From assembly GCA_002688925.1 (NCBI GenBank), contig NZEC01000011.1, positions 61,695 to 125,694 of the forward strand: a stretch of DNA of 64,000 bases, read 5' to 3'. The position numbers and the translations under genes were made by a program. This stretch comes from an archaeon (GTDB taxonomy: Archaea > Nanobdellota > Nanobdellia > Woesearchaeales > GW2011-AR4). Below the pieces are notes generated by a model. That model did no database searches and had not been told where the DNA came from. It saw nothing but the letters and a program-made list of their open reading frames with translations. This document shows positions 26 through 49,160 of the stretch, in pieces; the stretch's first letter is position 1; each line of letters starts with the position of its first letter.

Positions 26-913
26 ATGCTTGGGCTGCTATTTTACCTTTTTATAATCATGAGGCATTACAGGAAATACAATGTGGAAAGCCTCATTTAC
101 AGAATAGGGAAATTTGGCGAGATATTTTATGAAAAATTTATCTCATTATTCCATTATAAAAAAACAATTCTTTTGGGAATTTCAGGAATGTTAGTGTTGC
201 ACTTGCTTACAGATGCATTAAGCTTCATATTGCCATATATCTTAACATTTAGGGATTCGCTTTATTTCAGTCAATTGGGAGCGGGCCACGACTCATTAAT
301 ACCCTTATTTTTAGGCCAAATTGAAAATCAGCCTTTTCTTGAGCAGTTTTCATTATTTTTTGTCTATCTGTTAAACGCAATAGGGATTTTATTTTTGCTG
401 ATATTGCCGTCTTTTTTTTGGTACAGTGCTTTTACAGGCAGGATTTATCATGCCAGCAAATTAAGGCTGGCATTGTTTTTCAGCTCAGTATCTGTTTTGC
501 TGATAGCCCCTGTTTTTAGCATCAGCAGATTAAAAGACAAGGCCATTTTAGGAGTGGACATCCAGACCGGATTTGCAAATAATATATTTTTCAGCAGTTT
601 TTTTCAGGTGTTATTTTTTGTAGCTGTTGTTTTTTTACTATTATACCTCCTGATGAAGTATTTCAAGATGCCCATAATTTATTTTGCAGTTATAACAACA
701 CTTTTATTTTTTACCTATTACATTTACCTCTTCTTTACCAGCCTTATTTTTTATTACATTGACATTATTCCTGCTTTATTTGCCGCATCAAGGCTTTTCC
801 TTTCCTTCCATTTCTTGGTATTTTTTGCTATCAACATATTGTTCTATGTGGCAGGCTTCATAATGCTTATAGATGAAATCATAAAGGAAAAGGTTTATAA
901 AAACTTTTTATAA
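26..913 (+). CDS. polytopic integral membrane protein, function unknown
   Basis: 295-aa ORF made almost entirely of hydrophobic F/L/I-rich helices. The frame stays open back to the window edge, so the true start may lie upstream. Confidence 0.45.
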   Translation: MLGLLFYLFIIMRHYRKYNVESLIYRIGKFGEIFYEKFISLFHYKKTILLGISGMLVLHLLTDALSFILPYILTFRDSLYFSQLGAGHDSLIPLFLGQIENQPFLEQFSLFFVYLLNAIGILFLLILPSFFWYSAFTGRIYHASKLRLALFFSSVSVLLIAPVFSISRLKDKAILGVDIQTGFANNIFFSSFFQVLFFVAVVFLLLYLLMKYFKMPIIYFAVITTLLFFTYYIYLFFTSLIFYYIDIIPALFAASRLFLSFHFLVFFAINILFYVAGFIMLIDEIIKEKVYKNFL

Positions 914-1830: not shown

Positions 1831-2424
1831 ATGATATCAACTCAGGAAATGAAACAATTAGAGGACAATTGCGGCATTTCAAAAGGCGTTCTTATGGAAA
1901 ATGCAGGCAGGGGAATTGCAAAAGCCCTGCAGGATAAATTTGACATCAAAAACAAAAAAATCCTCATCGTTTCCTATCATGGGAATAACGGCGGTGATGG
2001 CTTTGCCGCTGCAGGGAATTTATGCGATGATGCAGAAGTAGATGTTCTGTTTGTTGGGGATGATTCAAAGCTCAAGGAAGAGGCATTGACTAATTTCAAA
2101 AAAATAGAAAACAACGACAAAGTTCAGATTTTAACATTGGAAGCAGTGGATTTTTCTGATTATGACATAATCTTGGATGCTATTTTTGGCATTGGAATCA
2201 ACGGAGAAATAAAAGACCCCTTGGCAACGTTAATAAAAAATCTTGGAAAATCAAAAGCAATTAAAGTTTCAATAGATGTACCTTCCGGAATAAACCCTGA
2301 TACAGGGGAAAAGGCGAATGTGTTTTTTGATCCTGATTTAATAATAACAATGCACGACATAAAAAAAGGCCTTGAGGGCTATAAAGACAAAACAGTAATT
2401 GTTGACATCGGGATTAAAAATTAG
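1831..2424 (+). CDS. nnrE: NAD(P)H-hydrate epimerase (YjeF N-terminal domain family)
   Basis: ENAGRGIA, YHGNNGGDGFAAAGNL and DAIFGIG motifs. TATA TTTATAAA at 1800-1807 lies 23 nt upstream of the ATG. Confidence 0.8.
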   Translation: MISTQEMKQLEDNCGISKGVLMENAGRGIAKALQDKFDIKNKKILIVSYHGNNGGDGFAAAGNLCDDAEVDVLFVGDDSKLKEEALTNFKKIENNDKVQILTLEAVDFSDYDIILDAIFGIGINGEIKDPLATLIKNLGKSKAIKVSIDVPSGINPDTGEKANVFFDPDLIITMHDIKKGLEGYKDKTVIVDIGIKN

Positions 2425-3087: not shown

Positions 3088-4173
3088 TTATTTAAATTTA
3101 ACGAATTTTAAGCTGCCAACTTGCTTCTTTGCTTTTTCAATGCCTTTAACAAGGTTATTCATGAAATCTTCCATTCTTGCGCATGCAATTTCTTTTAACT
3201 CCCCGCTTGTCATTTTGCCGGATTTATACTTCTTGTAAATCTTATTAAGCTCCTTATCATCTTCTACTAAATGTTGTTTCATTAATTCAAAAACCATATC
3301 TTTTTCTATTACAGCTCCTAATTTTCTGTGCTCTTCCAATGTATCCCTGCCGCCGCTCAAAGCCCTTTTTATTTTTTTGCAGACAGATTTTGGGTCTTCA
3401 GGCAGCTCAATACAGGATTCTGGCTTTGATTTTGACATCTTGATAGAGCCGTCTAATGACGGAGTATATTTATGGAAAACAGCGCTTGGAGCAAAAAACT
3501 TTTCAGTTTTCATCTTGGAAACAATATCCCTTGCAAGCAATATGTGCGGCAATTGGTCAGGGCCAACAGGAATTATTCCCGGCATTCTTTCTTTGAACTG
3601 AGGGTAAAGAATATCAGCAACTTGTGTTAATGCGCCAAGTATTCTGCTTGGCTCAGCATTTCCATAAAGGGCTAAAAATTGGTTCAATGTAACTTTTCTG
3701 GAAAAAAGCGAAGTTGCTTTCATCACATCAGAATTTTCAGATTGAAAATAAAATTTAGTTTTTTTTGGGTCCAGTCCAAGGGCAATATAAGCAGGAATGT
3801 GGAAGTCAAAGGCTCTTTTTCTTGCCTGTTCTAAAGAAACCCCCCTTGTAGCTTCTGCCTCCAGATCAGCAATTAAAATATAAGTCTCTGCGCCCAATTT
3901 CTGAAAATAAGCAATATTCTCAACAACCATCTTATTCCCGAAATGGATCTTATCGGCTGTAGGCATTATCCCGCTAAGAACATAAAACCTTTTTTTCAGT
4001 TTAATGGCATCAGAAATAGCCTTCTGCCCAATCCCGGAAAAGACAACGCCTCTTTTCATTATCCTGTTGGGCTTTGGAAACAAAGAAGCATCAAATTTCT
4101 CAAGATGAAAATCAGTGCTGAATTTACCATAATCCTTTACAAGTTCGCTTCCATATGGGTCTATTTTTTTCAT
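3088..4173 (-). CDS. trpS: tryptophanyl-tRNA synthetase, archaeal/eukaryotic type
   Basis: Class I HIGH-like KIHFGN, KMSKSKP loop, and a C-terminal SGGRDTLEEHRKLG...YKSGKMTSGELK block matching the eukaryote/archaeal TrpRS pattern. Confidence 0.88.
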   Translation of the reverse strand: MKKIDPYGSELVKDYGKFSTDFHLEKFDASLFPKPNRIMKRGVVFSGIGQKAISDAIKLKKRFYVLSGIMPTADKIHFGNKMVVENIAYFQKLGAETYILIADLEAEATRGVSLEQARKRAFDFHIPAYIALGLDPKKTKFYFQSENSDVMKATSLFSRKVTLNQFLALYGNAEPSRILGALTQVADILYPQFKERMPGIIPVGPDQLPHILLARDIVSKMKTEKFFAPSAVFHKYTPSLDGSIKMSKSKPESCIELPEDPKSVCKKIKRALSGGRDTLEEHRKLGAVIEKDMVFELMKQHLVEDDKELNKIYKKYKSGKMTSGELKEIACARMEDFMNNLVKGIEKAKKQVGSLKFVKFK

Positions 4174-4215
4174 TTTTTTAAATAATGAATTAAGTGCTTA
4201 TTAAATATTCTGTTT

Positions 4216-5076
4216 TTAAAACAGTATTATCAAACCAGCCCCAACCAGCATTATCACAGCCCCAACCAGCCTTTCCTTGATATATTCTTCCTTAAATATA
4301 AAATAGCCGTACAAAACACCAAAAATAGAGCTTGTTCTTTTAATGGATATAATATAAGGGACTATGGCAAGAGGTAATGCCAAGGCAGTGGTCATCATCA
4401 TCAGGCCAAAAAACAGCCCGGTAAAAAAGAAATTATTAAAGTTAGATTTAAGCTGCCCAAAACTTTTCCTGGATGTAAAAATTACTATTATCAGCAAAGG
4501 TACAACTACTGAAGGCAGATAAATTGCACTAATAAACAAAGGAGAGGATTTCAAAACAAGAATTTTGCCAATAGCAGAAGTTATGCTGAACAAAAAAGCG
4601 GCAGTTATCATATGCAAACATCCTTTTTCATTGAATATAAACCTAACTGGCCCTAATACACCTTTGCTTTTTTCCCTTAAATTTAAAGTATAGGTTCCAA
4701 TAACAACAAGCAGGATTCCAAAAAACCCGATAATTGTTGGCAGCTCATTCAAAATAACAAAGCTTGTAAAAATTAAAAATACTGGCGTTAAGGTCAAAAA
4801 AGGCGCAACTAAAGATAAATGAGAATTTCTTATCGCCTTTATGTAAAATATCCATGCTGCTACTTCAAATGGTATCGCAATGATTAATACAAGCCAAAAA
4901 TTAATATCAAGATCTGGTATAGGAATGAAAAACAGCAGCAATAAAACCATTGGCGCAGCAAATAAAAACCTTGACAATATCAAAATGTGGTTATCTGCAT
5001 CATGAATCTTCTTTGTAAAAACATCAGCAGTAGCCCAGAAAAATCCGCTCAACAGCGCATATAGAGCCCAAAGCAT
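4216..5076 (-). CDS. EamA/DMT-family transporter
   Basis: 286 aa, about 10 TM helices arranged as two repeated halves, typical of the drug/metabolite transporter superfamily. Confidence 0.65.
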   Translation of the reverse strand: MLWALYALLSGFFWATADVFTKKIHDADNHILILSRFLFAAPMVLLLLFFIPIPDLDINFWLVLIIAIPFEVAAWIFYIKAIRNSHLSLVAPFLTLTPVFLIFTSFVILNELPTIIGFFGILLVVIGTYTLNLREKSKGVLGPVRFIFNEKGCLHMITAAFLFSITSAIGKILVLKSSPLFISAIYLPSVVVPLLIIVIFTSRKSFGQLKSNFNNFFFTGLFFGLMMMTTALALPLAIVPYIISIKRTSSIFGVLYGYFIFKEEYIKERLVGAVIMLVGAGLIILF

Positions 5077-40553: not shown

Positions 40554-40644
40554 GCGAGGGTAGCCAAGCGGCCAAGGCGAGCGTCTCAAAATGAGCTCGA
40601 AGCTGCAACCCGCTTATTCCTGGGTTCGAGTCCCAGCCCTCGCT
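40554..40644 (+). tRNA. intron-containing tRNA, class I; probable tRNA-Cys(GCA) via a non-canonical splice (canonical 37/38 splicing would give CAA)
   Basis: Acceptor GCGAGGG/CCCTCGC, D arm GCC-AAGCGGCCAA-GGC, T arm CTGGG-TTCGAGT-CCCAG, 5-nt variable loop, discriminator T, no encoded CCA. 25 nt lie between the anticodon-stem halves (7-nt loop plus an 18-nt insert). TATA at 40524-40531 is 22 nt upstream. Confidence 0.8.
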
Positions 40645-40839: not shown

Positions 40840-41142
40840 ATGGCTATTTATTTCAATAAAGACAATAAAATTAAGCTTGAAAATCAAATAGGAGAATTGT
40901 ATGATAGGTATGATAATCAGCCTTTGGGAGTTGATGAAGCTATTTTAGAGAATATGGAATCATGCAATAATTGTACTTTATATATAAATCAAATGTCCAA
41001 AAATAAAAAAAAATACTCTGCAAAAATCATTGAAAGAAAATCCAATGGAAAAGAGCATACAATCAAAGATGGTTCAAAATATATGCCCCATAGAACTGAA
41101 ATTGGCAATTATATTGGGAATGGGTATTGCATATGTCGTTAA
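40840..41142 (+). CDS. hypothetical protein
   Basis: 100-aa ORF with a strong SD AGGAGGT 5 nt upstream. Contains CNNC and a C-terminal GYCICR. Confidence 0.45.
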   Translation: MAIYFNKDNKIKLENQIGELYDRYDNQPLGVDEAILENMESCNNCTLYINQMSKNKKKYSAKIIERKSNGKEHTIKDGSKYMPHRTEIGNYIGNGYCICR

Positions 41143-41196: not shown

Positions 41197-42555
41197 ATGC
41201 CAATAAAATTATTCAACACATTAACCAGGAAAAAAGAAGCATTAAAGCCAATTAAAGACAAAAATATAAAATTATTCGTCTGCGGCATAACACCTTATGA
41301 TTATGCCCATATCGGCCATGCAAAAACTTATGTGCAGTTCGATGTCATAGTAAAATACCTAAGATACAGAGGATATTCTGTTTATTACCTGCAAAACGTG
41401 ACTGATATCGATGACAAAATAATCAACAGGGCAAAAGAAAAAAATATCAAGCCGCTTGATTTGGCAAGGAATTTTGAAAAAGAATACCATAAAGATATGC
41501 AGGCATTGGGCGTTGATTCTATAACTAAATATGCGCGTGCAACAAAGCACATTAAGGAGATAATAAACCAGGTAAATGCTTTAATCAAGCACGGATATGC
41601 ATATAACATAGAAAATGACGGGATTTACTTCAATCTTAGCAAATTTAAGGAATATGGCAAATTATCAGGCAGAAAATCAATGCAGGCAGAAGACGCTGTA
41701 ACAAGAATAGATGACAGCAAAAAGAAGATCAACAAAGGCGATTTTTGCCTGTGGAAAAAATCAAAAAAAGACGAGCCTTCATGGGACGACCCATGGTTTC
41801 ATAATGGAAGGCCAGGCTGGCATATTGAAGATACAGCAATAAGCGAGAAATATCTTGGCCAGCAATATGATATCCACGGCGGCGCCCGAGACTTGATATT
41901 CCCCCATCATGAGGCAGAAATAGCCCAGATGGAATCTGCCTCAGGAAAAAAGCCCTTTGTTAAATATTGGCTGCATACTGGCTTTCTTAACGTAAAAGGC
42001 CAGAAAATGGCCAAATCGCTGGGAAATTTCATCACAATAAGGGAGGCTTTAAAGAAATATGACCCTAAAGTATTAAGGTTTTTTTACCTCTCAGCCCACT
42101 ACAAAAGCCCGATAGATTTCTCAGAAGAATTATTGAAGCAGGCAAAAAATTCATTGGAAAGATTAAATGATTTTCTAAAAAAAGTAAAATACAGCAAAGA
42201 AAAAGACAACAGCAAATTAATAGAAAAAACAAAAAAGGAATTTTTTAAGAATATGGATGATGATTTTGACACTCCAAAAGCACTTGCAGTTATTTTTGAT
42301 TTTGTAAAAGAGGTAAACAAGACTGGAGGAGGGAAAAAAAGCTGCAACTTAATAATAGAGTTTGATAAAATCTTCAGTGTTTTGACAATAGAAGACCTTA
42401 AGTTAAGCCAGGAAATCAAAAAATTGATAGAAGAAAGAGAAAAAGCAAGAAAAGAAAAAGACTATGAAAAAGCAGATAAAATAAGGGATAAAATAAGGGA
42501 TAAAGGCTATATTCTTGAAGATTCAGATGAAGGTCCAAGAGTCAAAAAAATATAA
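41197..42555 (+). CDS. cysS: cysteinyl-tRNA synthetase
   Basis: CGITPYDYAHIGHAKTY (HIGH), GWHIEDTA and KMAKSLGN (KMSKS). TATA TTTTATTA at 41166-41173 is 23 nt upstream. Confidence 0.95.
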   Translation: MPIKLFNTLTRKKEALKPIKDKNIKLFVCGITPYDYAHIGHAKTYVQFDVIVKYLRYRGYSVYYLQNVTDIDDKIINRAKEKNIKPLDLARNFEKEYHKDMQALGVDSITKYARATKHIKEIINQVNALIKHGYAYNIENDGIYFNLSKFKEYGKLSGRKSMQAEDAVTRIDDSKKKINKGDFCLWKKSKKDEPSWDDPWFHNGRPGWHIEDTAISEKYLGQQYDIHGGARDLIFPHHEAEIAQMESASGKKPFVKYWLHTGFLNVKGQKMAKSLGNFITIREALKKYDPKVLRFFYLSAHYKSPIDFSEELLKQAKNSLERLNDFLKKVKYSKEKDNSKLIEKTKKEFFKNMDDDFDTPKALAVIFDFVKEVNKTGGGKKSCNLIIEFDKIFSVLTIEDLKLSQEIKKLIEEREKARKEKDYEKADKIRDKIRDKGYILEDSDEGPRVKKI

Positions 42556-46752: not shown

Positions 46753-48189
46753 CTAATAAGCCCTGGCAAAATAAACCAGAAAATTCCCTTCTTTTCCGCA
46801 ATGGACGCATTTGCCTTTTTCTTCCTTTATTATTACCCTTGAAGTTGCTCCACCTGTCTTGTCTTTAATTTCCTCCTCACACTTCACTTTATTGCAGAAA
46901 TTTGCCAAAACTAATTTTTTATCATTAATGCCTTTTTTGAATTCATTAAAGTTCTTAACCTTTATTGTATTGTCATTAAAAAACTTCTTTGATTTCCTGT
47001 AAAGATTTTCATGTATGTCTTCCAGCACCTTATCTGTTTTTTTATTGAGTTCGCTTATCTTAACAGGCTCTTTTTTTCCGTTATCCCGCCTGACTAAAAT
47101 AACCTGACTTTTCTCAATATCTCTAGGCCCTATTTCTAATCTTACAGGAACACCTTTAAGCTCCCACTCATTGAATTTCCATCCCGAGCTGTATCCTTCT
47201 CTATCATCAACCTCAACCCTTAAGCCTTTCAATTTACTTTTGATTTCATCTGCTTTTTTCAGCACTTTATCCTTAGTCTTATCAAAAATTATCGGAACCA
47301 CAACCACTTGCACCGGAGCCATTTTAGGAGGCATTACAAGGCCGTTGTCATCTCCATGCACCCCAATCATAACCCCGAGCATCCTTGTCGTGATAGCGAA
47401 CGTATTCTGCCACACATAATCCTCTTTTTCATCTTTATCCAAAAATTTTATGTTAAAAGCTTTAGCAAAGTTCTGCCCGTCTGAATGAAAATCAGGCCCT
47501 TGTATTGCCTTTCCGCTTGGCAAAAAAAGCTCTATTGAGTAAGTTGCTTCTGCTCCTGGAAACTTTTCCTTTTCTGTTTTTTTACCTATGACTCCGTATA
47601 ATGCCATATAATCATTAAGAAAATCAGAATAAATGTTCAGAATCTGCTCTTTTTCTTTCTCAGCTTCTTCTTTTGAAGCAAAAACTGTATGCCCTTCATT
47701 CCATAAAAATTCCCTTGTTCTTAATAAGGCAATGGGATGCTTAAACTCCCATCTTACTATATTGTTCCATTGGTTCAGCCTTAAAGGTAGATCTCTCCAG
47801 CTCCTTATCCACTTTGCAAAGCTTTCATACATTATTGTTTCTGATGTTGGTCTTACTGCAAGCCTTTCATTTAATTTTGTATTTCCAGCATGAGTAACCC
47901 ACGCAACCTCTGGATTAAAACCTTTTACATGGCTTTCTTCTTTTTTTAATAAGCTTTCAGGAATAAATAATGGAAAATAGCAATTTTTAATTCCAATTTC
48001 CTTAAACTTTTTATCAACCTCGCTCTGCACAATCTCCCACATAAAAAAAGAATAGGGTTTAAAGACCATGCACCCTGAAACAGAAGTGTAATCCGCAAGC
48101 TCAGCTTTCTGGATTACCTGTGTGTACCATTCAGAAAAATCCTCTGATTTTTTTACTGAGATTCCAAGCTTTTCTTCTTTTTTTGGCAT
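46753..48189 (-). CDS. proS: prolyl-tRNA synthetase, archaeal/eukaryotic type
   Basis: Class II motifs (RPTSET, FLWNEGHT..., GKAIQG), an anticodon-binding domain, and a C-terminal zinc domain ending ...CVHCGKEG..YFARAY. Confidence 0.95.
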   Translation of the reverse strand: MPKKEEKLGISVKKSEDFSEWYTQVIQKAELADYTSVSGCMVFKPYSFFMWEIVQSEVDKKFKEIGIKNCYFPLFIPESLLKKEESHVKGFNPEVAWVTHAGNTKLNERLAVRPTSETIMYESFAKWIRSWRDLPLRLNQWNNIVRWEFKHPIALLRTREFLWNEGHTVFASKEEAEKEKEQILNIYSDFLNDYMALYGVIGKKTEKEKFPGAEATYSIELFLPSGKAIQGPDFHSDGQNFAKAFNIKFLDKDEKEDYVWQNTFAITTRMLGVMIGVHGDDNGLVMPPKMAPVQVVVVPIIFDKTKDKVLKKADEIKSKLKGLRVEVDDREGYSSGWKFNEWELKGVPVRLEIGPRDIEKSQVILVRRDNGKKEPVKISELNKKTDKVLEDIHENLYRKSKKFFNDNTIKVKNFNEFKKGINDKKLVLANFCNKVKCEEEIKDKTGGATSRVIIKEEKGKCVHCGKEGNFLVYFARAY

Positions 48190-48205
48190 TAGGTTATCTG
48201 CCTTT

Positions 48206-49030
48206 TCATGTATATTTAAATTTTTTGGGTAAAAATAAGGTGCCTTTTGATTTACTTCTTAATAGTTCATTTATAATCATATGCTCCACACCATTTGCTA
48301 TCACTACTGGAATTCCAGCATTCATAGCAATTTGCGTTGCCTCTAACTTGGATTCCATGCCTCCTGCACCATTTTCTGTTCCAATATTAGGATTAGCGTA
48401 CCCTTTCACTTCATCCACATCTCTTGCTAAAGGTACCTTCTTTCTTTGATTGTCATATACACCATCAACACTTGTTAGCATAATAAGGAGATCTGCATTG
48501 CTATTTACAGCAACTTTAGCAGCCAATGAGTCATTGTCACCAAAAGTAATCTCTTCATTTGATACAGTATCATTCTCATTTATAATTGGTACAACATCAT
48601 TATACAATAATAATTCTAAAGTATTTTTGAAACTATCCAACCTACCACTTTTTTTATCAAAATCTTCATGTGTTAAAAGTAATTGTCCAGCTGTTATTCC
48701 ATAAGACCGCAAGTGCATTTCATATTCATGATACATACTGCTTTGGCCAATAGCAGAATAAGACTGCTTTACAACAGTTTCACTATGCTCGCCATCGTTT
48801 TTCAAATCAATTATGCCTCTTCCAGTAGCAATTGCTCCTGAAGAAACTATGATAACTTTTTTATCATATTTTTTTATTAACTCAGCAACCTGGTCCGAGA
48901 TTTCATAAATTTTTGTACTATCGAGCTTTTTATCTTCTCTTGTCAATATATTAGAACCTATTTTTACTACATATATTTCTGCTTGATTCAATAAATATTG
49001 TTGGATTTTTCCTAAATTCACTTCATTCAT
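48206..49030 (-). CDS. proB: glutamate 5-kinase (no PUA domain)
   Basis: VVKIGSNILT, IVSSGAIATGR, INENDTV and FGDNDSLAA motifs. The ORF-track N-terminal extension overlaps the tRNA and is rejected. The ATG at 49030 has SD AGGAGGT 5 nt upstream. Confidence 0.85.
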   Translation of the reverse strand: MNEVNLGKIQQYLLNQAEIYVVKIGSNILTREDKKLDSTKIYEISDQVAELIKKYDKKVIIVSSGAIATGRGIIDLKNDGEHSETVVKQSYSAIGQSSMYHEYEMHLRSYGITAGQLLLTHEDFDKKSGRLDSFKNTLELLLYNDVVPIINENDTVSNEEITFGDNDSLAAKVAVNSNADLLIMLTSVDGVYDNQRKKVPLARDVDEVKGYANPNIGTENGAGGMESKLEATQIAMNAGIPVVIANGVEHMIINELLRSKSKGTLFLPKKFKYT

Positions 49031-49035
49031 GTTAA

Positions 49036-49042
49036 ACCTCCT
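49036..49042 (-). promoter_or_regulatory. Shine-Dalgarno AGGAGGT of proB inside the 19-nt tRNA-Pro/proB spacer
   Basis: Minus strand reads tRNA...CCCCA TTTATTC AGGAGGT TTAAC ATG. Confidence 0.6.
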
Positions 49043-49049
49043 GAATAAA

Positions 49050-49160
49050 TGGGGCTGCCCGGATTTGAACCGAGGTTGTGTGGCCCCGAACCACAAGTGA
49101 TAAGTGATATTACTCCAAAACAACTATTAAATTGCTCCAACCAAGCTACACTACAGCCTC
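49050..49160 (-). tRNA. tRNA-Pro: tRNA-Pro(CGG) with a roughly 35-nt insertion in the 3' side of the D arm
   Basis: Anticodon arm TGTGG-TTCGGGG-CCACA (CGG at 49088-49086), T arm CTCGG-TTCAAAT-CCGGG, acceptor GAGGCTG/CAGCCCC (A2:C71 mismatch), discriminator A, no CCA. 58 nt lie between the acceptor and the anticodon stem where 19 are expected. Confidence 0.75.

Follow-up and report, generated by a model that had tools for sequence, protein, structure and literature searches.

Non-canonical introns in archaeal tRNA genes are known from a number of positions, including 20/21, 30/31 and 59/60 (PMC4090602). Disrupted tRNA genes and genes with multiple introns have been described in Thermoproteales and DPANN archaea, the intron sites including 30/31 and 59/60 (PMC4090602, PMC5829648, PMC3239211). 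Examples of HBh'-type introns located in the D loop are those in pre-tRNA-Glu(UUC) of Methanopyrus kandleri at 20b/21 and in pre-tRNA-Thr(UGU) of Aeropyrum pernix (PMC5829648). In DPANN archaea, a Woesearchaeote included, alpha4 endonucleases with an extra L3 loop accompany many disrupted tRNA genes (PMC5829648).

The window analysed in this study is a stretch of 64,000 nt with 34% G+C. A locus in it is best explained, with a probability of about 0.85, as a real tRNA-Pro gene which carries a relaxed intron in its D loop and, in addition, a strain-specific 7-nt duplication of exon sequence. As in M. kandleri and A. pernix, the intron is inside the D loop and its removal, as carried out in orthologues, restores that loop. 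One well-formed 3-nt bulge separates a 4-bp helix from the intron helix and the other site is in a relaxed loop; as in those two cases, a broad-specificity endonuclease is expected to be needed. Unlike the two hyperthermophiles, the host is a mesophilic marine Woesearchaeote; the predicted site, 19/20 in tRNA-Pro, is common to several Woesearchaeota lineages, and the window allele adds an exon duplication at the 3' junction. The spread of sites in Woesearchaeota (19/20 and 59/60 in tRNA-Pro, 30/31 in tRNA-Cys, 35/36 in tRNA-Arg) resembles that in Thermoproteales and other DPANN archaea, and as in Thermoproteales the presence of an intron varies among close relatives. In contrast to the cases described in these groups, no sequence similarity that would point to intron transposition was found here between introns of different tRNAs.

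The tRNA-Pro(CGG) precursor, read from the sequence, extends from 49160 to 49050 on the minus strand. Its 5' part is GAGGCUG UA GUGU AGCUUGG UUGGAGCAAUUUAAUAGUUGUUUUGGAGUAA UAUCACU UAUCACU. The 3' part consists of the anticodon arm (UGUGG-UUCGGGG-CCACA), the variable loop CAAC, the T arm (CUCGG-UUCAAAU-CCGGG), the acceptor strand CAGCCCC and a final A. A preliminary description had reported canonical anticodon (CGG), T and acceptor arms apart from an A2:C71 mismatch, and a distance of 58 nt from the acceptor to the anticodon stem; both points were borne out. The coordinates it gave for two short repeats, TTGGAG at 49140-49135 and 49118-49113 and a tandem ATCACTT at 49108-49102 and 49101-49095, were also exact. 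The features of the locus and of its surroundings are collected in Table 1. The A/T box TTTAATAA is a putative archaeal promoter of the gene, and a comparable box is present about 30-40 nt upstream in orthologues, e.g. L015.

Table 1. Coordinates of the tRNA-Pro(CGG) locus, its predicted splicing elements and neighbouring genes in the window
Feature	Coordinates	Strand	Remarks
TATA-box-like TTTAATAA	49187..49194	-	~30 nt upstream of tRNA position 1; sequence read
Exon 1, tRNA positions 1-19	49141..49160	-	GAGGCUG, U8 A9, GUGU, AGCUUGG to G18 G19
Central helix H, 5' strand GCUU (exon 1)	49143..49146	-	pairs with GAGU
Predicted intron, between G19 and U20	49110..49140	-	31 nt; BHB scan, orthologue junctions, covariation
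h' inner helix	49139..49130 with 49125..49116	-	10 bp, loop UAAU
Central helix H, 3' strand GAGU (intron)	49115..49112	-	BHB scan
UAUCACU copy 1, exon 2 start, tRNA positions 20-26	49103..49109	-	directly 3' of motif GAG(C/U)AA^
UAUCACU copy 2, tandem, strain-specific	49096..49102	-	orthologue comparison
Exon 2 remainder	49050..49095	-	anticodon CGG at 49088..49086; discriminator A = 49050
proB, glutamate 5-kinase, 274 aa	48206..49030	-	PF00696; no PUA domain
Archaeal-type prolyl-tRNA synthetase (ProRS)	46753..48189	-	directly downstream of proB
tRNA-Cys(GCA), U73 discriminator	40554..40644	+	intron 40584..40601; ARAGORN on spliced sequence

ARAGORN made no call at the tRNA-Pro locus, and Rfam left it unreported both at the gathering threshold and at E values up to 5. 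A covariance model (R1) was built on seven intron-less Woesearchaeota tRNA-Pro(CGG) genes. It matched the whole precursor over its full model length with 73.7 bits (E ~5e-17), a score far beyond chance, and the only local insert was placed in the D loop. Exon 1 was aligned with model positions 1-21 and is identical to the intron-less orthologues save for a G2->A change. The cloverleaf, the CGG anticodon, G37, A73 and the orthology are all those of tRNA-Pro(CGG), the one blemish being the A2:C71 mismatch, which is common to the window and its sister strain (L023, see below). On these features the locus is read as a true tRNA-Pro(CGG) gene, its host being a marine archaeon of the Woesearchaeota (DPANN). 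The minimum free energy fold of the whole precursor was no better than that of shuffled sequence (z = -0.63). The nearest named relatives of the ProRS encoded in the window are from Candidatus Woesearchaeota and Nanoarchaeota, which identifies the host as a DPANN archaeon. The exact ProRS sequence was found in 119 blocks of the public collection; thus the organism is widespread.

To compare the D arm, orthologues were collected from species-representative genomes scanned for TCACTNNNGGTTCGGGGCCNNNCAA, from metagenomes scanned for the exact 26-mer of the anticodon arm, and from the ProRS neighbourhoods of relatives. Seventeen orthologous tRNA-Pro(CGG) genes beyond the window were obtained, of which one lacks its 5' end. 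An intron is absent from seven complete genes (73-75 nt) and from the 5'-truncated L009. GUGU-AGCUUGGUA-UCAC-U is the commonest D arm in the intron-less genes, GTGT-AGCTTGGTA-TCAC-T is found in L008, L015, L016 and L021, and D loops reach 11 nt in L002 and L018. Five genes (L023, L012, L014, L019 and the odd L011) carry an insert of 34-70 nt directly 3' of AGCUUGG. In the first four the insert measures 34-40 nt, is placed exactly between GG and TATCACT and ends in GAGCAA. When it was removed in silico, the intron-less D loop AGCUUGGUA was restored exactly, and L023, L012, L014 and L019 gave a canonical cloverleaf like that of the intron-less orthologues. As the native D arm in the orthologues is GUGU-AGCUUGGUA-UCAC, the excess in the window amounts to 38 nt, made up of a 31-nt intron (49140..49110) and the 7-nt tandem duplication. 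An insert of about 35 nt near tRNA positions 22-25 had been proposed earlier, with a D arm of AGCUUGGUUGGA closed by GCAC; no orthologue has GCAC at this place, all of them having TCAC.

L011 (tRNA-Pro(CGG) at 3976..4118) does not fit the intron scheme. Its D-arm insert is 70 nt long and contains two GAGCAA motifs, with nine extra bases, GCTTCAAAC, between the second motif and TATCACT. No BHB was found in it that restores a normal D loop, and the best-scoring candidate (12/13), in which the acceptor strand is paired with the extra bases, is probably spurious. L011 may contain tandem introns or may be, after the window, another instance of additional bases at the 3' junction. Another side observation concerns L012, where tRNA-Pro(CGG) is followed, at a distance of 170 nt, by a second tRNA-Pro-like gene (1877..2029); the D loop of this gene is interrupted at the same site by an intron, and its anticodon region contains a large insert. 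A T-loop intron at 59/60 (UUCG-AA^ ... CGAA-AG^U) is present in tRNA-Pro at five loci (L002, L013, L014, L017 and L022, of which L002 and L013 are the same MAG contig), and L014 has introns at both 19/20 and 59/60.

The 31-nt intron starts with a U, the third base of the 5' bulge GG^U, and continues with the h' hairpin, GAGU and the AA of AA^U. The h' strands are UGGAGCAAUU and AGUUGUUUUG, with G-U in 5 of the 10 pairs. In the central helix H, GCUU and GAGU form all four pairs, two of them G-U. The same helix is seen as GCUU/GAGC in L023, L012, L014 and L019, and as GCCU/GGGU, a compensatory change, in the paralogue of L012. The 5' bulge is closed by H and by the 10-bp h'. The 3' site AA^U is 2 nt past H, in a 1x4 (or 2x5) internal loop beside the D stem. 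A strict hBHBh' motif with two bulges is not formed, because the D stem, which would be the outer helix, is offset by 1-2 nt (adjacent h = 0 bp) and the 3' site is no clean 3-nt bulge. Under the relaxed definition (HBh'/BHL) taken from PMC5829648, H, the bulge and h' are intact and the 3' site is at a fixed distance; L023, L012, L014 and L019 have the same architecture. By this architecture the intron would belong to the non-canonical (relaxed) BHB introns of archaeal tRNAs, a well-known class.

Pairing of this quality is rare by chance: when the junctions were kept fixed, only 7 of 200000 shuffled introns gave H = 4 together with h' >= 10. Precisely the same site is occupied by an intron in five other Woesearchaeota tRNA-Pro genes, with the central helix in common and with inner helices which are unrelated but paired. 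Covariation was assessed on six genes in register (the window, L023, L012, the second tRNA-Pro of L012, L014 and L019). In these, 97.2% of the helix cells are paired, compared with at most 53% in slid controls. All H cells are paired, five pairs change on both sides (including U-A -> C-G in H), the inner helices are wholly different in sequence, and none of 500 shuffles reached the observed covariation score. The sample of six genes is small and partly related, with a register extracted by hand, and so the covariation is strong support, short of proof. It is highly probable that the window intron is real and homologous to those of the relatives.

The comparison of orthologues which had been recommended in the preliminary description thus upheld its reading that the D arm contains a non-canonical archaeal intron with a relaxed motif, with five related genes showing the same site and a covarying BHB, and corrected its boundaries, its helix and the meaning it gave to the repeats. 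Where it had been unable to fold a strict BHB at any junction, a relaxed one (H of 4 bp, 3-nt 5' bulge, h' of 10 bp) is present at the junctions of the orthologues. The tandem ATCACTT, taken there as a feature of the insert, is a strain-specific 7-nt duplication of exon sequence; a sister strain of 98.5% identity does not have it. Repeats of another kind were seen in the introns. The sister-strain intron (L023 3450..3483) has the same 9-mer, TTGGAGCAA, at its start and end, with 8 of the 9 bases matched in the window intron, and the exon edge TTGG recurs as the intron's first four bases. A less marked repeat, ..GCAA/..GUAA near the start and GAGCAA at the end, is present in the introns of L012, L014 and L019.

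The sister strain (L023/L025, contig Ga0187827_10000006) is 98.5% identical to the window over 3.7 kb with an identical ProRS and is of the same species. The duplicated unit covers tRNA positions 20-26, the segment between the 3' splice site and the anticodon stem. It is found in the window and in L001/L024 (ERZ27286378), an independent assembly with 1 SNP in 20.8 kb; the sister strain and all 15 other orthologues are without it. The sister intron is 34 nt long, has a hairpin loop longer by 3 nt and has GAGC where the window has GAGU. Its tRNA contains a single UAUCACU, and the predicted spliced product of 73 nt is called as tRNA-Pro by ARAGORN. G57A, a neutral change, is the only exon substitution between the strains, and two of the four indels that separate them over 3.7 kb fall inside the 111-nt tRNA gene. 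When 24 contigs with the exact ProRS were read, 14 were of the window strain type and 10 of the sister type, the tRNA allele being directly visible in one contig per type. The duplication is a recent mutation, which probably arose by replication slippage.

Removal of 31 nt from the window precursor leaves the 7 extra nt in a product of 80 nt, which was rejected by ARAGORN. In its predicted folds, either the D loop is enlarged to 16 nt or an 8-nt linker precedes the anticodon stem, at similar energies (-21.1 and -21.7 kcal/mol, respectively). A canonical tRNA is obtained from the window allele only if 38 nt are removed. A single 38-nt intron was considered and rejected on sequence reasoning: H has at most one of four pairs at junction (20,58), and at (21,59) it starts with a C-C mismatch.

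From these data the following course of splicing is proposed. The pre-tRNA would fold with normal acceptor, anticodon and T arms, and exon bases G15-U17a (GCUU) would pair with GAGU near the 3' end of the intron, giving the central helix of 4 bp. The 3-nt bulge GG^U, between this helix and the 10-bp intron hairpin, would contain the 5' splice site. The 3' site AA^U would be placed two bases past the helix in the small asymmetric loop by the D stem, giving a relaxed BHB of the HBh' type. The archaeal splicing endonuclease would cut at both sites and an RNA ligase would join G19 to U20, with the loss of 31 nt. In the sister strain, excision of the 34-nt intron is predicted to yield a perfect 73-nt tRNA. 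As the central helix is the reference from which the endonuclease sets its cuts, the duplication would stay in the product of the window strain. The 80-nt RNA would accordingly have either the 16-nt D loop or the 8-nt linker between the D and anticodon stems.

What this means for the function of the window allele is less certain. The chances are about even that this copy is impaired or dead and is tolerated since CCG can be read by tRNA-Pro(UGG). A decaying gene, the other reading of the preliminary description, would concern this allele alone. A codon that makes up about 15% of the Pro codons in the window ORFs, and that another tRNA-Pro may read, would allow such a loss. A stricter form of this view, to which slightly less than an even chance is given, holds that the intron is ancestral and real, that the duplication together with A2:C71 blocks the formation of a usable tRNA, and that another tRNA-Pro reads CCG. 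It agrees with the rejection of the BHB-predicted product, which keeps the 7 extra nt, by ARAGORN, with the concentration of strain indels in the gene, with the weakening of H (G-C -> G-U) and with the low demand for CCG in a genome of 34% G+C. Many C34 isoacceptors are not known from AT-rich archaea such as Methanocaldococcus jannaschii, which favours the same view. A 7-nt tandem duplication in the tRNA body and an acceptor mismatch are also what is seen in tRNA pseudogenes with small insertions. Unlike in such pseudogenes, this locus has kept intact every tRNA position of universal conservation as well as the anticodon and T loops and the promoter-like box, and the lone exon substitution relative to the sister is neutral. 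Beyond the 7-nt duplication no other damaging change was found, and 98.5% identity is too close for constraint to be gauged. The strain type that carries the duplication, represented by 14 of 24 contigs, comes from many samples, the allele itself being seen in two assemblies; this also speaks against a dead gene. Since the sister strain has an undamaged allele, any inactivation in the window would be at most very recent.

It is also possible, at somewhat less than even odds, that the window allele still works with an enlarged D loop, and in a tolerated variant of this kind the enlarged part may be solvent-exposed. We consider it improbable that the duplication at the 3' junction is a snapshot of BHB introns moving or growing (intron sliding), or that the 80-nt product functions as a tRNA whose D loop, at 16 nt, would be unprecedented. 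If sliding were true, the duplicated exon edge would supply a second, weaker helix, UGGU/AUCA, and with it a shifted pair of splice sites, the old exon copy would be in the course of becoming intron, and L011, with nine bases after GAGCAA^, would be a second case of junction change.

The same UGGU/AUCA helix figures in a further alternative, a single intron of about 35 nt cut at UG^G and CU^U or ending at a GCA|C junction. In that event the first repeat copy would be absorbed and the tRNA would have a 12-nt D loop. UGGU/AUCA does form four pairs at the 4-bp BHB spacing, D loops of up to 11 nt exist in the relatives L002 and L018, and ARAGORN takes many excisions of 35-46 nt as tRNA-Pro. The last point comes from brute-force excision followed by ARAGORN, in which 273 of 2290 excisions were accepted, mostly of 35-46 nt and called tRNA-Pro(CGG); this test is too permissive for junctions to be placed by it. 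Against the 35-nt intron, the flanks of UGGU/AUCA, as read from the sequence, amount to 1 bp each, and the junction (a=23, b=58) is outside the top 15 of the BHB scan. TGGT/ATCA, the best helix of the preliminary description, is not that of the orthologues and its fold is 3.4 kcal/mol worse than the orthologue-type fold. Moreover, such an intron conflicts with the junctions of the five orthologous introns, it implies the GCAC D stem which no orthologue has, and in the duplication-free sister the helix would excise a strand of the D stem. We therefore regard it as very unlikely, and the 31-nt intron followed by an exon duplication is retained.

Downstream of the gene, proB starts after 20 nt, behind an AGGAGG motif. 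In related Woesearchaeota, tRNA-Pro(CGG) is directly upstream of ProRS (L002 4656..6437; L022 10..1303); in the window (46753..49160, minus) proB is placed between the two. The best matches of ProB are bacterial (Omnitrophica and others) or from Methanosarcinales/ANME. When ProB was used as a query for relatives, the next match was 46% identical and the first contig scan of genomes was empty. L005, whose ProRS is a 72% relative, has at the same place a different amino-acid kinase, 28% identical. The window proB looks like a horizontal acquisition or replacement. Just upstream of the kinase-ProRS pair of L005, an orphan tRNA 3' fragment, CGGGGTTCGAATCCTGTAGGCGCA, was seen at about 4175..4210. 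It resembles the 3' end of the tRNA-Arg(TCG) 1.3 kb upstream and not tRNA-Pro; it may be left from an integration or a duplication.

Given this arrangement, the element might be taken for a tRNA-like leader that regulates the downstream proB-proS operon, with no tRNA gene present. It precedes proB-ProRS by 20 nt in which no clear terminator is seen, the order tRNA-Pro(CGG) -> ProRS recurs in L002/L013 and L022, and tRNA-Cys likewise precedes CysRS in the window. Against this, the element corresponds at every base to its orthologues, ordinary tRNA-Pro(CGG) genes which in most Woesearchaeota loci are apart from ProRS; ProRS relatives at 72% identity (L005, L006) are without such an element upstream, and no regulatory structure beyond the tRNA is conserved. 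The leader is thus highly improbable. Equally improbable is an assembly or sequencing artefact, with the sister-strain allele as the true gene, since the duplication, short, tandem and directly seen in two assemblies only as it is, is identical in the independent contig, the SDR-to-proB spacing differs from the sister type by +4 nt, as expected from +7 and -3, and 7-nt tandem repeats are not normally created by short-read assemblers.

The second tRNA gene in the window is tRNA-Cys(GCA), which has an 18-nt intron at 30/31 with a strict hBHBh' motif (H CGAG/CUCG, h' CUCA/UGAG). In unspliced form it was miscalled by ARAGORN as 'tRNA-??? (caaa)' and aligned by Rfam with a 20-nt insert in the anticodon loop; the spliced sequence was called tRNA-Cys(gca), 73 nt. 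The gene is upstream of a 100-aa ORF (40840..41142) and of CysRS (41197..42555), all on the plus strand. The tRNA-Pro/ProRS and tRNA-Cys/CysRS neighbourhoods suggest a pairing of tRNA genes with those of their cognate synthetases, possibly co-transcribed.

A strict BHB in its own tRNA-Cys, and introns of relatives at 59/60 and 35/36, suggest that the lineage splices introns of this kind. Thirty mid-size ORFs of the window were searched for a splicing endonuclease (tRNA_int_endo, EndA), and none matched. The relatives' introns at 35/36, inside the anticodon, are in tRNA-Arg(UCG), with a strict BHB in L006 (~2170..2290) and L007 (~380..500); near-canonical introns are present in the same tRNA in L002 (2833..2931) and L017 (2742..2825). 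ARAGORN misses this tRNA in L006, L007 and L002. The tRNA-Arg gene of L007 is adjoined by an ORF of 224 aa, which has faint LAGLIDADG matches. Elsewhere in the window (4734..4771, plus strand), a single-copy match to CRISPR-DR22 with 27.3 bits (gathering threshold 50; E = 0.22) is probably due to chance.

The tRNA-Pro locus leaves the current understanding of archaeal tRNA splicing unchanged. Both tRNA genes of the window were missed or mis-assigned by standard tRNA finders; thus, tRNA inventories of Woesearchaeota and DPANN archaea look incomplete without BHB-aware tools. Across Woesearchaeota, tRNA-Pro has a conserved D-loop intron site at 19/20 and a T-loop site at 59/60, and as the presence of introns varies between close relatives the group is useful for the study of intron gain and loss. 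A mildly interesting feature is the natural pair of alleles which differ by duplication of an exon edge at the splice junction. This pair, with and without the duplication, constitutes a natural test of how the endonuclease measures its cuts and of how far expansion of the D loop is tolerated.
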